DNA of 64,000 nt, from the NCBI RefSeq assembly GCF_041886205.1, contig NZ_CP169029.1; one strand, written 5' to 3'. Below are positions 25,693 to 45,648 of the stretch, in pieces. The position numbers and the translations under genes were made by a program. The stretch's first letter is position 1. Every line of letters starts with the position of its first letter. This DNA comes from Escherichia coli. Its GTDB lineage: Bacteria > Pseudomonadota > Gammaproteobacteria > Enterobacterales > Enterobacteriaceae. Below the pieces are notes generated by a model. That model saw only the letters and a program-made list of their open reading frames with translations, ran no database searches and was not told the origin of the DNA.

Positions 25693-25707
25693 TTAGTATA
25701 AAAAAGC
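25693..25707. other. prophage attR core (lambda att common core, P-O-B' arrangement)
   Basis: TTAGTATAAAAAAGC (reverse complement of GCTTTTTTATACTAA) flanked by the bacterial B' arm (CTTGAGCG) on one side and a lambda-like P arm on the other. Confidence 0.85.
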
Positions 25708-25852
25708 TGAACGCGAAACATTAAAAACCATTAATATCAATGTGTTACAATATCTTTAGTCTAAAAAATAGACTACATGATGCTACAAAACACAACATAT
25801 CCAGTCACTATGAATCAACTACTTAGATAGTATTAGTGACCTGAGACAGAGC

Positions 25853-25894
25853 ATTAGCGCAAGGTGATTTTTGTCTTCTTGCGCTAATTTTTTG
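25853..25894 (+). terminator. intrinsic terminator, probably the tI/sib-equivalent of the int transcript
   Basis: perfect 11 bp stem (ATTAGCGCAAG/CTTGCGCTAAT) followed by a T-run, about 150 bp beyond the att core on the P-arm side. Confidence 0.5.
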
Positions 25895-26055
25895 TTATCA
25901 AACATGTCGCACTCCAGAGAAGCACAAAGCCTTGCAATCCAGTGCAAAGATTTGTGTGCCTCAGTTTTGTCTAAGTGTTCTACTGAAAACATAGTAAAAT
26001 CGGCAACAGCTGGAAATCATTCAATACTCGCACTATCGAAAGTTCACCAGCCAAC

Positions 26056-26095
26056 CGCAGCACGTTCTTGCATACGACGTGCTGCGGTTTTCTTT
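26056..26095 (+). terminator. intrinsic terminator hairpin
   Basis: CCGCAGCACGT...ACGTGCTGCGG stem followed by TTTTCTTT. Confidence 0.5.
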
Positions 26096-26246
26096 ATGAT
26101 TTATGCACAATGGACAATTTGAAATTATTGATGATTGTATGGTGCATCGTTTTCTGAACCTACACTGATTTTTTGGTATAGCCTTGCCTAGCCAGTCTTA
26201 CCGGATCAAACTCTTCGCTATTGCAATACTAACCAAAATCATCAAT

Positions 26247-26276
26247 TTGACAGCGATTAACCAGAATAATAGTATA
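26247..26276 (+). promoter_or_regulatory. candidate sigma70 promoter for the GGDEF gene
   Basis: consensus -35 TTGACA, 17 bp spacer, -10-like TAGTAT, about 75 bp upstream of the start codon. Confidence 0.4.
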
Positions 26277-26347
26277 CTATCACCAGTAAGAAATTATCGT
26301 TATTTGTAGCGATACATATTATATATATATCATTCTCAGGTGCGTAC

Positions 26348-27679
26348 ATGATTATCAACCAGGTACCTATAAAAATAAAAATCTTCATCTTTTTATTTTC
26401 ATGCATCTCTATTATATTTTTGTTACTGCATGAAAATAATGGAATATACATAACACAAACAACACAAATAAGTTATAGTGTTTTCATTATTGGGCTTTTT
26501 TTCATAAACCTGATGATTTTTATTTTTCTATTGCTTTACTATGTTTCTAATCAGAGACAAAGTTATCTCTTAATTCTTTCATTCGCGTTTTTGAGCAACA
26601 CGTATTATTTATTAGAAGTGGCTATTATTTCTTTATCTCCGTTAGGTAACGATTTATCTACAATCTATCAGAAATCAAATGATATCGCAATATATTATCT
26701 ATTCCGTCAGCTCAGCTTTATATCTATAATCTTTCTGGCTGTTTATTCCACCAATGTTAAAAATAAAAGTGTTTTAGAAGATAAAAGAAACATAATAATT
26801 GTTGTTTTGTCAATATTAATTCTTTTTATTACTCCGTTTGTAGCAAAAAATCTAAGCAGTGACAATATAAAATATAGTCTTAATATTATACAATACTCGC
26901 TGAATCGTCATTTGCCGACGTGGAATATCGTGTACACCAAAATAATATCAGTATTTTGGCTTGTATTACTTATCAGCTCATGCATCAGCATACGTAATTA
27001 CTCAAAAATATGGTTGTGTATAATACTTATTAGTATAGTGTCAGTATGCAATAATCTAATTTTATTGTATTTTATTGATAAATCCCATCCTGCATGGTAC
27101 ATGACAAAATTTCTTGAGTTGATATCAATGATTTATATCATTTCAACACTCATGTATTATGTTTTCAGGAAATTAAATCATGCTAATCATATGGCAATTC
27201 ATGATCCACTAACGAATACATACAATAGAAGATACTTTATTGACTCATTGAAGAATATATCAAAACACCATGATTTCTCAGTAATAATGTTAGATATTGA
27301 CAGTTTCAAAAGCATCAATGACAAATGGGGGCATCATATGGGTGATCAAGTCATAGTAATGGTTACCAGAATAATAAAAAAATCCATCAGGAAAGAGGAT
27401 ATATTAGGGCGCTTAGGCGGTGAGGAGTTCGGTATTATCATTAAAGGTAATACTCAAAAGCTCTTGCTATCAATTGCAGAGCGAATCAGAAAAAACATTG
27501 AAGAGCAATGCTCGGAAAAATTATTATCGCATGGACCTGAGAAAATAACTGTCAGTATTGGTTGCTTTACTTCAAAAGAGAATAATCTCAGCCCATCTGA
27601 AATGTTAGTCAATGCCGATAAAGCGTTATATCAAGCCAAAAGAACCGGAAAAAACAAGGTGATAATTCACTCAAAATAA
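26348..27679 (+). CDS. dgcX: membrane-anchored diguanylate cyclase (GGDEF domain), DgcX-like prophage cargo gene
   Basis: 443 aa; about 270 aa very hydrophobic multi-TM N-terminus, C-terminal GGDEF domain with active-site GGEEF and an RKED (RxxD) I-site five residues upstream; strongly AT-rich; symbol assigned from memory of a DGC reported at this locus. Confidence 0.8.
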   Translation: MIINQVPIKIKIFIFLFSCISIIFLLLHENNGIYITQTTQISYSVFIIGLFFINLMIFIFLLLYYVSNQRQSYLLILSFAFLSNTYYLLEVAIISLSPLGNDLSTIYQKSNDIAIYYLFRQLSFISIIFLAVYSTNVKNKSVLEDKRNIIIVVLSILILFITPFVAKNLSSDNIKYSLNIIQYSLNRHLPTWNIVYTKIISVFWLVLLISSCISIRNYSKIWLCIILISIVSVCNNLILLYFIDKSHPAWYMTKFLELISMIYIISTLMYYVFRKLNHANHMAIHDPLTNTYNRRYFIDSLKNISKHHDFSVIMLDIDSFKSINDKWGHHMGDQVIVMVTRIIKKSIRKEDILGRLGGEEFGIIIKGNTQKLLLSIAERIRKNIEEQCSEKLLSHGPEKITVSIGCFTSKENNLSPSEMLVNADKALYQAKRTGKNKVIIHSK

Positions 27680-43716: not shown

Positions 43717-43998
43717 ATGAGTATCAATGAGTTAGAGTCTGAGCAAAAAGATTGGGCGTTATCAATGTTGTGCAGATCCGGTGTCTTGTCTCCATGCAGA
43801 CATCACGAAGGTGTTTATGTAGATGAAGGTATAGATATAGAGTCGGCATACAAATATTCCATGAAGGTTTATAAGTCTAATGAAGACAAATCCCCATTCT
43901 GCAATGTGCGAGAAATGACTGATACCGTGCAAAATTATTATCACGAGTACGGTGGAAACGATACTTGCCCTCTCTGTACAAAACATATAGATGATTAA
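43717..43998 (+). CDS. ea8.5: lambda Ea8.5-like b2-region protein
   Basis: 93 aa with Cys/His-rich motif; RBS AGGAG upstream. Confidence 0.65.
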   Translation: MSINELESEQKDWALSMLCRSGVLSPCRHHEGVYVDEGIDIESAYKYSMKVYKSNEDKSPFCNVREMTDTVQNYYHEYGGNDTCPLCTKHIDD

Positions 43999-44086
43999 AC
44001 CCAATATTACATAACAATCCTCGCACTCGCGGGGATTTATTTTATCTGAACTCGCTACGGCGGGTTTTGTTTTATGGAGATGATAA

Positions 44087-44254
44087 ATGCACTTCCGAGT
44101 CACAGGAGAATGGAATGGAGAGCCATTCAACAGAGTTATCGAAGCGGAGAACATCAACGACTGCTACGACCACTGGATGATATGGGCGCAGATAGCACAT
44201 GCAGACATAACCAATATTCGAATTGAAGAACTGAAAGAACACCAAGCCGCCTGA
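44087..44254 (+). CDS. small lambda-like ORF (55 aa) upstream of xis
   Basis: MHFRVTGEWNGEPFNRV.. ORF between ea8.5 and xis; below the track length cut-off, found by manual translation. Confidence 0.45.
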   Translation: MHFRVTGEWNGEPFNRVIEAENINDCYDHWMIWAQIAHADITNIRIEELKEHQAA

Positions 44255-44293
44255 TGGCGGTTTTTTCTTGCGTGTAATTGCGGAGACTTTGCG

Positions 44294-44512
44294 ATGTACT
44301 TGACACTTCAGGAGTGGAACGCTCGCCAGCGACGCCCAAGAAGCCTTGAAACAGTTCGTCGATGGGTGCGCGAATGCAAGATATTCCCTCCTCCGGTTAA
44401 GGATGGAAGAGAATATCTGTTCCACGAATCAGCGGTAAAGGTTGACTTAAATCGACCAGTAACAGGTAGCCTTTTGAAGAGGATCAGAAATGGGAAGAAG
44501 GCGAAGTCATGA
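44294..44512 (+). CDS. xis: excisionase Xis (lambda-type)
   Basis: 72 aa MYLTLQEWNARQRRPRSLETVRRWV..; matches lambda Xis as remembered; overlaps int start. Confidence 0.9.
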   Translation: MYLTLQEWNARQRRPRSLETVRRWVRECKIFPPPVKDGREYLFHESAVKVDLNRPVTGSLLKRIRNGKKAKS

Positions 44513-45560
44513 GCGCCGGGATTTACCCCCTAACCTTTATATAAGAAACAATGGATATTACTGCTACAGGGACCCAAGGACGGGTAAAGAGTTTGGATTA
44601 GGCAGAGACAGGCGAATCGCAATCACTGAAGCCATACAGGCCAACATTGAGTTATTTTCAGGACACAAACACAAGCCTCTGACAGCGAGAATCAACAGTG
44701 ATAATTCCGTTACGTTACATTCATGGCTTGATCGCTACGAAAAAATCCTGGCCAGCAGAGGAATCAAGCAGAAGACACTCATAAATTACATGAGCAAAAT
44801 TAAAGCAATAAGGAGGGGGCTGCCTGATGCTCCACTTGAAGACATCACCACAAAAGAAATTGCGGCAATGCTCAATGGATACATAGACGAGGGCAAGGCG
44901 GCGTCAGCCAACTTAATCAGATCAACACTGAGCGATGCATTCCGAGAGGCAATAGCTGAAGGCCATATAACAACAAACCCTGTCGCTGCCACTCGCGCAG
45001 CAAAATCAGAGGTAAGGAGATCAAGACTTACGGCTGACGAATACCTGAAAATTTATCAAGCAGCAGAATCATCACCATGTTGGCTCAGACTTGCAATGGA
45101 ACTGGCTGTTGTTACCGGGCAACGAGTTGGTGATTTATGCGAAATGAAGTGGTCTGATATCGTAGATGGATATCTTTATGTCGAGCAAAGCAAAACAGGC
45201 GTAAAAATTGCCATCCCAACAACATTGCATGTTGATGCTCTCGGGATATCAATGAAGGAAACACTTGATAAATGCAAAGAGATTCTTGGCGGAGAAACCA
45301 TAATTGCATCTACTCGTCGTGAACCGCTTTCATCCGGCACAGTATCAAGGTATTTTATGCGCGCACGAAAAGCATCAGGTCTTTCCTTCGAAGGGGATCC
45401 GCCTACCTTTCACGAGTTGCGCAGTTTGTCTGCAAGACTCTATGAGAAGCAGATAAGCGATAAGTTTGCTCAACATCTTCTCGGGCATAAGTCGGACACC
45501 ATGGCATCACAGTATCGTGATGACAGAGGCAGGGAGTGGGACAAAATTGAAATCAAATAA
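44490..45560 (+). CDS. int: tyrosine integrase Int (lambda-type)
   Basis: 356 aa, full length, near-identical to lambda Int as remembered (few substitutions); catalytic R..HxxR..Y region intact. Confidence 0.95.
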   Translation: MGRRRSHERRDLPPNLYIRNNGYYCYRDPRTGKEFGLGRDRRIAITEAIQANIELFSGHKHKPLTARINSDNSVTLHSWLDRYEKILASRGIKQKTLINYMSKIKAIRRGLPDAPLEDITTKEIAAMLNGYIDEGKAASANLIRSTLSDAFREAIAEGHITTNPVAATRAAKSEVRRSRLTADEYLKIYQAAESSPCWLRLAMELAVVTGQRVGDLCEMKWSDIVDGYLYVEQSKTGVKIAIPTTLHVDALGISMKETLDKCKEILGGETIIASTRREPLSSGTVSRYFMRARKASGLSFEGDPPTFHELRSLSARLYEKQISDKFAQHLLGHKSDTMASQYRDDRGREWDKIEIK

Positions 45561-45633
45561 TGATTTTATTTTGACTGATAGTGACCTGTTCGTTGCAACA
45601 AATTGATAAGCAATGCTTTTTTATAATGCCAAC

Positions 45634-45648
45634 TTAGTATAAAAAAGC
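45634..45648. other. prophage attL core (B-O-P' arrangement)
   Basis: TTAGTATAAAAAAGC with the bacterial B arm (TGAAGCCTG on the other strand) toward ybhC and a lambda-like P' arm toward int. Confidence 0.85.

Follow-up and report, generated by a model that had tools for sequence, protein, structure and literature searches.

The window analysed here, a 64,000-nucleotide stretch of an Escherichia coli genome (RefSeq assembly GCF_041886205.1, contig NZ_CP169029.1), contains a prophage element of about 20 kb (positions 25693-45648; 18,642 bp without the insertion sequence (IS) that it carries). We found that this element is very probably the decayed descendant of a lambdoid prophage of about 50 kb, of the type present in genome 6EVA, and that its excision would no longer be self-driven and could occur only with functions supplied in trans. 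The ancestor would have combined lambda-type int, xis and att sites, a DLP12-type nin-Q-porin-lysis region, a Rac-type start of the late region (trkG/ParB), a lambda-like tail tip and the diguanylate cyclase gene dgcX. Six microhomology deletions, amounting to about 31 kb, would then have occurred in this lineage, followed by the insertion of an IS3-family element into ybcN. What is left would be open cargo genes (dgcX, trkG, emrE and a porin gene), a Q-lysis cassette predicted to be silent and the whole of the recombination module.

We examined the integration site at both ends of the element. The window contains exactly two copies of the 15-bp lambda common core GCTTTTTTATACTAA (25693-25707 and 45634-45648), each on the minus strand, against 0.00 matches expected by chance. 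A three-way alignment with lambda attP showed that the left site consists of the P arm, core and B' (attR) and the right site of B, core and the P' arm (attL), i.e. a direct-repeat core with hybrid att sites, as in an integrated prophage of the lambda type. The genes bioA and ybhB lie to the left of the element and ybhC, then galETK, to the right, which gives the textbook lambda prophage order gal-attL-int...J-attR-bio. In most E. coli genomes, the homology to the left flank ends at 25707. When 25708-45648 was removed in silico, the joined flanks matched the empty ybhB-ybhC attB of K-12 MG1655 without gaps (1960 bp, 99.2% identity), with no differences for at least 40 bp on each side of the core. 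The predicted attP aligned, likewise gap-free, to that of lambda (94.0% over 502 bp) and to that of phage ev099 (98.7% over 445 bp). In summary, the element is a cryptic lambdoid prophage placed by a lambda-type Int at the primary lambda site between ybhB and ybhC. An earlier reading of the window, made from its letters alone (the sequence-only reading), had proposed both site-specific integration at this attB and identical 15-bp cores at the two ends, in agreement with the exact core matches, the hybrid sites and the gap-free excision. The arrangement xis-int-attL-ybhC was found in 1,972 of 5,426 complete E. coli genomes, meaning that prophages with a lambda int occupy attB in about 36% of them.

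The ancestry of the interior was revealed by comparison with 6EVA (NZ_CP138428.1, about 1375.0-1424.9 kb), which carries at attB a nearly full-length prophage of about 49.8 kb with dgcX, trkG, the porin gene and emrE. The first part of this prophage reads int-xis...exo-bet-gam-kil-cI-cro-ydaT-O-P-ren-emrE-ybcK...ybcN-ninE-ybcO-rusA-ylcG-quuD-porin-essD-rrrD-Rz-trkG, and trkG is followed by ParB-GREB1-like-terminase...capsid...tape measure-L-K-I-J-lom-stf-tfa-dgcX-attR. Its capsid genes are of the P22 type and its tail-tip genes of the lambda type. In the annotation of the Prokaryotic Genome Annotation Pipeline (PGAP), the only broken genes are the tape-measure gene, stfR, ylcJ, an Ea22-like gene and a short DNA-repair fragment, and the 6EVA prophage may be inducible. 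The window element is collinear with it at 93-99.8% identity, with six gaps: deletion A (3,292 bp; most of stf and the end of lom), deletion B (1,497 bp; the N-terminus of J and the C-terminus of I), deletion C (16,085 bp; from K through the tail, head and terminase genes to the GREB1-like gene), deletion D (2,645 bp; ybcK and its neighbours), deletion E (311 bp; within P) and deletion F (8,016 bp; from the N-terminus of O, with the origin domain, through cro, cI, kil, gam, bet, exo and beyond). At gap F, the window has instead 648 bp of lambda-type ea22'/ea8.5 sequence (43391-44038), which is missing from 6EVA. The net loss of 31,198 bp added to the 18,642 bp without the IS gives 49,840 bp. 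The junctions show overlaps of 2-9 bp, which argues that the deletions arose by microhomology-mediated illegitimate recombination and not by IS-mediated or site-specific events.

The same element is present in wlxctx60, a complete E. coli genome from a Japanese black bear, which differs by about 10 single-nucleotide polymorphisms (SNPs) over the 62.7 kb shared and does not have the IS. The deletion junctions were found in one of the 5,426 complete genomes, namely wlxctx60. The protein accessions of DgcX, Tfa, TrkG, Rz, RrrD, EssD, the porin, QuuD and RusA are identical in 6EVA and wlxctx60. Relatives at the same site range from a remnant of about 27 kb (enterotoxigenic E. coli, LR882990) to a nearly complete prophage (55989). 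This comparison also bears on the integrity of the assembly. Lambdoid repeats often misassemble, and the IS transposase gene carries a frameshift in a homopolymer, but the independent complete genome of wlxctx60 has the same structure base for base, save for the IS and a few SNPs, which makes a chimeric join of several prophages extremely improbable.

The sequence-only reading had described the interior as a patchwork of lambda-, DLP12- and Rac-like modules, and had held that collinearity with a single known intact phage would speak against this. The segment-wise similarities are real, as blastn alignment gave 88-99% identity to lambda, 92-98% to DLP12 and 99.3% to Rac, and int, xis and both att sites are intact. 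Nevertheless, an in-situ assembly of the element from such modules, able to excise itself, for instance after an SOS response, seems quite improbable to us. The interior is collinear with the one 6EVA prophage, save for the six deletions, the IS and the 648-bp segment, and the same combination of modules already forms a contiguous prophage of about 50 kb in 6EVA, integrated at the same site, with part of it found in 55989 and LR882990 as well, which implies that the combination is older than the decay. The collinearity thus speaks in part against the patchwork by the standard of that reading, although the 6EVA prophage may not be viable. Since the combination is contiguous in 6EVA at the same site, the DLP12-like and Rac-like modules appear to have been inherited together from one lambdoid phage type.

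We then looked at which phage functions are left. The inventory was made by tblastn with lambda proteins and by blastn against lambda, DLP12, Rac and ev099, with gene names from the PGAP annotation of the sister strain wlxctx60. In the element, tblastn detected no cI, cro, cII, N, rexAB, cIII, kil, gam, bet or exo, no lambda-type S, R, Q or nin genes, none of the genes D through L and no ea47, ea31 or ea59. Lambda Nu1, A, W and B lay outside the protein query set, and the 16-kb block of 6EVA that corresponds to them is absent from the element. There is also no cos in the element, and all the bases of 25708-45633 are accounted for by identified features. As a defective prophage, the element is without the terminase, portal, capsid, tail-tube and tape-measure genes needed to form particles, and it has no cos, no immunity switch and no working replication module. 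The losses of cI/cro/N, exo/bet/gam, the head genes and most tail genes had been noted in the sequence-only reading, as had a lambda-like set of ea8.5, O, P, ren, K, I, J, lom, stf and tfa; this list holds, but of K, I, J, lom, stf, O and P the element has only fragments. The remnant is therefore predicted to be unable to replicate, because the origin and the N-terminal domain of O are gone and P is frameshifted, to package its DNA, because there is no cos or terminase, or to build particles. A size of about 20 kb, with int, xis and att sites and no capsid genes, would also suit a helper-dependent satellite, similar to a phage-inducible chromosomal island (PICI) and packaged by a helper phage. 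This candidate was rejected for the lack of cos and of a working replication module (O has lost its origin domain, and P carries a frameshift); there are no satellite hallmark genes, and every segment can be traced to a full-size prophage in which deletions have scarred the genes, so that we regard a satellite origin as very improbable.

In contrast to these losses, the recombination module (attL, attR, int and xis) is complete and looks competent. Int is identical to lambda Int at 352 of 356 residues, the substitutions being K141N, H164P, A245T and I248V, and the catalytic residues R212, K235, H308, R311, H333 and Y342 are all six unchanged, as in heterobivalent tyrosine integrases of the lambda type; Xis is identical at 70 of 72 residues. 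Scanned for motifs alongside lambda attP, the predicted attP showed all five arm-type sites (P1, P2 and P'1-P'3) and three consensus sites for IHF (H1, H2 and H') at the lambda positions. From the core to +110, the P' arm is free of mismatches to lambda. The P arm (88.6% identity to lambda and 96.7% to ev099) has 29 mismatches to lambda, all outside the consensus cores. Several substitutions in the Xis/Fis region are also found in ev099, a phage genome from a plaque isolate, and nearly all the P-arm variants in the approximately 200 bp beside the core, the stretch in common with ev099, recur in its attP. The earlier description of an intact near-lambda int and xis with lambda-like P and P' arms was thus accurate.

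Lambda xis is transcribed solely from pL with N antitermination. In the element, the repressor, pL, pR, N and cII are absent, leaving it without an SOS-responsive switch of its own; a crude consensus scan of the plus strand from the O' junction to xis revealed nothing resembling a sigma70 promoter, and at 44016-44263, between ea8.5 and xis, there are three terminator-like hairpins. Self-driven or SOS-driven excision of the remnant is hence unlikely, given the loss of the repressor, pL, N and cII, the lack of a promoter-like site and the three hairpins ahead of xis. In a search for a resident helper that shares its Int specificity, the sister genome wlxctx60 yielded only a single copy of the lambda-type xis-int. 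Excision by Int and Xis of lambda specificity supplied in trans is, on the other hand, plausible. Of the earlier suggestion that the element might still excise even though it cannot make virions, the inability to form virions is supported by the gene losses and the lack of cos, while self- or SOS-driven excision is not. In the proposed scheme, excision would have ceased to be self-driven once the pL- and N-dependent transcription of xis was lost, Int and Xis in trans would excise the remnant, and the remnant may swap modules with infecting lambdoid phages by homologous recombination.

Several points weigh against our view of a 6EVA-type descendant that is excised only in trans. The 6EVA prophage may not be viable as a phage, and its tape-measure gene, stfR and ylcJ are among those flagged as broken. 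It does not have the 648-bp lambda-type segment, and some segments are just 93-97% identical, which suggests that the true ancestor was a recombinant relative and not 6EVA itself. The four substitutions in Int, the two in Xis and the P-arm variants may affect recombination, and the competence of the module for excision is a prediction from its sequence. Finally, basal or read-through transcription of xis and int may occur, the promoter scan having been a crude consensus search.

One cargo gene, overlooked in the sequence-only reading together with emrE and the IS in ybcN, lies next to attR. It encodes a 443-residue protein with a MASE4 domain (residues 40-274) and a GGDEF domain (residues 283-437), a GGEEF A-site and an RKED I-site five residues upstream, and the sequence RKEDILGRLGGEEF is present. 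DgcX is known as a diguanylate cyclase encoded at attB beside lambdoid prophages in O104:H4, 55989, E24377A and H10407; it is described as having a multi-pass membrane N-terminal domain of about 270 residues and a GGDEF domain, in which the GG(D/E)EF A-site is intact and an RxxD I-site precedes it by five residues, its expression is reported to be very high, and hitch-hiking by specialized transduction was proposed for it (Richter et al. 2014, PMC4287979). The window protein was identified by this description, having the published domains, sites and location, and in the E24377A- and 55989-type relatives the flanking DNA matches the window. The GC content of the dgcX stretch is 31-36%, and the gene occupies the position of the lambda b region. 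Because the P arm and a b-region remnant separate dgcX from ybhB, it lies inside the att boundaries and appears to be a phage moron rather than flanking chromosomal DNA taken up by specialized transduction, which refines the published hitch-hiking idea. The arrangement ybhB-core (attR)-P arm-dgcX-tfa was found in 758 of the 5,426 complete genomes, placing this prophage type in about 14% of them.

The state of the cargo raises the question of whether the element is a domesticated cargo island kept by selection, with int, xis and the att sites retained incidentally or for occasional transfer. All four cargo genes (dgcX, trkG, the porin gene and emrE) are open, the six deletions and the IS hit only replication, regulatory, structural or nin-region genes of the phage, dgcX stands beside attR in the 758 genomes in prophages that are variously decayed, and DgcX is reportedly very highly expressed, as cited above. 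Against this, the deletions are very recent (their junctions are in one of 5,426 genomes, and the sister is about 10 SNPs away), so that intactness may reflect a lack of time, and the lysis cassette, Q, tfa, ea8.5, xis and int, which offer no obvious benefit to the host, are equally intact. We therefore hold domestication to be possible, but clearly the less probable account compared to simple descent from a 6EVA-type prophage by decay. It is more doubtful still that the remnant serves as a working mobile unit in trans, in which a superinfecting or co-resident phage of lambda Int/Xis specificity excises it or integrates beside it and acquires dgcX, trkG, the porin gene or emrE through site-specific or homologous recombination; if true, decayed attB prophages would constitute a permanent reservoir for the spread of dgcX, a gene of biofilm signalling, in E. 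coli.

Comparison with known systems places the element close to the dgcX-carrying attB prophages (55989, O104:H4, E24377A and H10407) and 6EVA, with which it shares the site, int/xis/att, dgcX next to attR and tfa, and the order ren-emrE-ybcK-nin-rusA-quuD-porin-essD-rrrD-Rz. The likeness to 6EVA also extends to trkG and to the ParB-like and GREB1-like genes. The window copy differs in the six lineage-specific deletions and the IS in ybcN, together with the ea22'/ea8.5 segment not in 6EVA. With lambda, the element shares the core and P' arm, Int (99%), Xis (97%), DNA segments of 88-99% identity and the map order attL-int-xis-ea8.5...O-P-ren...Rz...K-I-J-lom-stf-tfa-b region-attR. However, only 35% of the element matches lambda, the nin, Q, S and R genes are of the DLP12/phage-21 type, dgcX takes the place of the b region, and the genes for immunity and recombination are lacking, as are those for the head and most of those for the tail. 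DLP12, which is also defective, is collinear with the element over ren, emrE, ylcJ, ybcK', ylcH, ybcN, ninE, ybcO, rusA, ylcG, quuD, porin, essD, rrrD and rzpD, at 92-98% DNA identity. The two differ in that DLP12 lies at argU with IntD, whereas the element lies between ybhB and ybhC with a lambda Int, only the module being shared; moreover, the porin gene, disrupted by IS5 in K-12 DLP12, is intact in the element (the homology spans the IS5 site), ybcL and ybcM are missing from the element, and its ybcN carries the IS. The likeness to Rac covers the Rz-trkG-ynaK segment (99.3% over 2.4 kb) and the tfa/stf ends (about 95%), but Rac lies at ttcA with its own int/xis (IntR) and carries recET/racR, and by these marks the element is not a Rac prophage; ynaK is an 87-residue stump, whereas the ParB-like gene is whole in the element. 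The Escherichia phage ev099 (Radostvirus, NC_049953) matches 54% of the element at 96.6%, with a near-identical P arm and similar porin/Q/lysis and lom/J regions, but it is a complete phage genome of 47 kb that has no trkG and whose b region carries an AraC-type gene where the element has dgcX. Together, these comparisons suggest that DLP12 and Rac are remnants of relatives of the ancestral prophage.

The features of the element are listed in Table 1. In the tail region, stf' runs without a gap along 6EVA stfR as far as the breakpoint at 28895, the remainder having been lost in deletion A; an alternative, that stf' had undergone several small deletions relative to lambda, was discarded, because the remnant forms a single uninterrupted C-terminal portion of an stf of the 6EVA/Rac type. 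An Rfam match to IS009 (RF02111, 225 bits, 27796-27994, minus strand) lies wholly within the tfa coding sequence. PGAP calls lom' a pseudogene in the sister strain. The N-terminal 425 codons of J were lost in deletion B, and the open reading frame (ORF) 31320-31901 of I' reads out of frame through the deletion B junction. Deletion C made an in-frame fusion ORF, called an intact "GREB1-related protein" by PGAP in the sister strain, in which about 172 N-terminal residues from a GREB1-like/glycosyltransferase-like late-region gene are joined to the 92 C-terminal residues of tail protein K (K residues 108-199, 100% identical to lambda K; breakpoint 32076/32077 relative to 6EVA). The neighbouring ParB-like gene has the same length as in 6EVA, and the homology to Rac ends at 33106. 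The stretch 32078-33105, which has no DNA match in lambda, DLP12 or Rac, was considered as foreign DNA and proved to be how the late region normally begins, with a ParB-like and a GREB1-like gene, as in many E. coli prophages. In this prophage family, full-length ParB/Srx-like and GREB1-like genes lie between trkG and the terminase genes (6EVA locus 22810-24526), and the pair may be a DNA modification or anti-restriction module.

Table 1. Features mapped in the element, in window coordinates
Feature	Position	Strand	Evidence or remarks
attR core	25693..25707	-	exact 15-bp match; junction P-O-B', ybhB/bio side
P arm of attR with P1, P2, H1, H2, Xis/Fis region, sib/tI-like distal part	25708..25960	.	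blastn
lambda b-region remnant (ea31/ea47 intergenic)	25986..26087	.	89% identical to lambda 24162-24265
dgcX, 443 aa, MASE4 + GGDEF diguanylate cyclase	26348..27679	+	Pfam MASE4 1.3e-35, GGDEF 5e-44
tfa, tail fibre assembly, intact	27753..28337	-	194/194 aa aligned to lambda Tfa, 94%
stf' (C-terminal 185 codons, side tail fibre)	28337..28894	-	phrog_295 profile positions 639-794
lom' (N-terminal fragment, Ail/Lom outer membrane protein)	28890..29105	-	tblastn, lambda Lom residues 1-79
J' (C-terminal ~740 codons, tail tip)	29176..31398	-	tblastn, lambda J residues 426-1131
I' (N-terminal 169/223 codons, tail assembly)	31395..31901	-	tblastn 97.6%, residues 1-169
Fusion ORF, 265 aa	31799..32596	-	phrog_842 residues 8-174; phrog_30 residues 173-265
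ParB/Srx-like nuclease-domain gene, full-length, 263 aa	32568..33359	-	phrog_620 6.5e-90, whole profile
trkG, K+ transporter cargo, intact	33497..34954	-	99.3% to Rac trkG DNA; TIGR00933 412 bits
rzpD/Rz	35092-35556	-	open; 95% to lambda Rz
Rz1, embedded in Rz	35166-35336	-	open; 98% to lambda Rz1
rrrD endolysin	35553-36050	-	open; PGAP name
essD holin	36050-36265	-	open; PGAP name
Porin, nmpC/OmpD-like, 360 aa, intact	36853..37935	+	NCBIfam porin OmpC 518 bits
quuD (Q antiterminator)	38124-38507	-	open
quuD, ylcG, rusA, ybcO, ninE, all open	38124..39542	-	98.4% to DLP12; PGAP of sister strain
ybcN, split by IS	39542..41311	-	uninterrupted in wlxctx60, 6EVA and DLP12
IS3-family insertion sequence, 1311 bp	39898..41208	+	Rfam RF01497 120 bits; NCBIfam IS3 transposase over three ORFs
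ylcH, ybcK', ylcJ, emrE, ren	41308..42516	-	94-97% to DLP12; PGAP
emrE, intact small multidrug resistance (SMR) efflux cargo gene	41814-42146	-	PGAP
ren	42214-42516	-	PGAP
P' + O'	42513..43390	-	tblastn: P residues 1-58 and 150-233; O residues 132-299
ea22' (last 45 codons), ea8.5 (43717-43998), orf55 (44087-44254)	43388..44254	+	99.25% to lambda DNA; proteins 98-100%
xis, intact, 72 aa	44294..44512	+	70/72 identical to lambda Xis
int, intact, 356 aa	44490..45560	+	352/356 identical to lambda Int
P' arm (H', P'1-P'3) + attL core 45634-45648	45561..45648	-	junction B-O-P', ybhC/gal side

The lysis cassette (35092..36265, minus strand) is 92.5% identical to that of DLP12, and the Q-lysis cassette, open as it is, should be silent without transcription from pR. 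The IS in ybcN is bounded by 25-nt terminal inverted repeats that start with TG, is flanked by a 3-bp target duplication (CCA) and contains orfA and orfB with a -1 frameshift signal (an ALIL pseudoknot), all in keeping with the IS3 family. Its insertion is very recent, as the otherwise near-identical wlxctx60 does not have it. Near 40660, orfB is split by one additional A within a short run of A, which reflects either the mobilisation in trans of a dead copy or a homopolymer sequencing error. To the right of the IS, ybcK' consists of the first 156 bp only, owing to deletion D, and over the stretch 41308..42516 the element lacks 3.3 kb that DLP12 has and 2.6 kb that 6EVA has. P' is frameshifted by the internal 311-bp deletion E; the relatives have an intact P that is 311 bp longer. 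Of O, the C-terminal 168 codons or so remain, while the origin and the N-terminal domain (residues 1-131) were deleted. A breakpoint at iteron 4 of the lambda ori was considered for O' and rejected, since the match extends for another 26 bp, to 43390, in relatives whose O N-terminal domain is not of the lambda type; the junction is actually at about 43388-43390, and the lambda boundary is the usual O domain boundary. An Rfam search of the element returned only IS009 and the IS3 frameshift pseudoknot, with no match to a phage-regulatory family.

What appeared to be an unusual mosaic is thus a routine deletion derivative of a common prophage family, which is mainly a negative result. Elements of this kind are textbook and the association of dgcX with attB is published, whereas the exact decay product is undescribed, although present in RefSeq. 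It nonetheless provides a clean and datable case of stepwise prophage decay, in which a lineage about 10 SNPs deep has undergone six microhomology deletions and gained one IS, and the comparison shows the ancestors of the K-12 DLP12 and Rac fragments in their whole state, with a full-length ParB-like gene and an intact porin.

Outside the element, a region of low GC content (about 41%) at 10815-12302 contains two genes of the Bax-inhibitor-1/YccA family beside ybhL, giving three paralogues in a row; K-12 presumably has two such paralogues (ybhL and ybhM). A molybdenum cofactor (Moco) riboswitch was found at 15979-16123 (minus strand), upstream of moaA as expected, and the uvrB-yvcK intergenic region has a short match to the small RNA ES036 (CssrF) at 17388-17429 (plus strand), with 43 bits, barely over the threshold.

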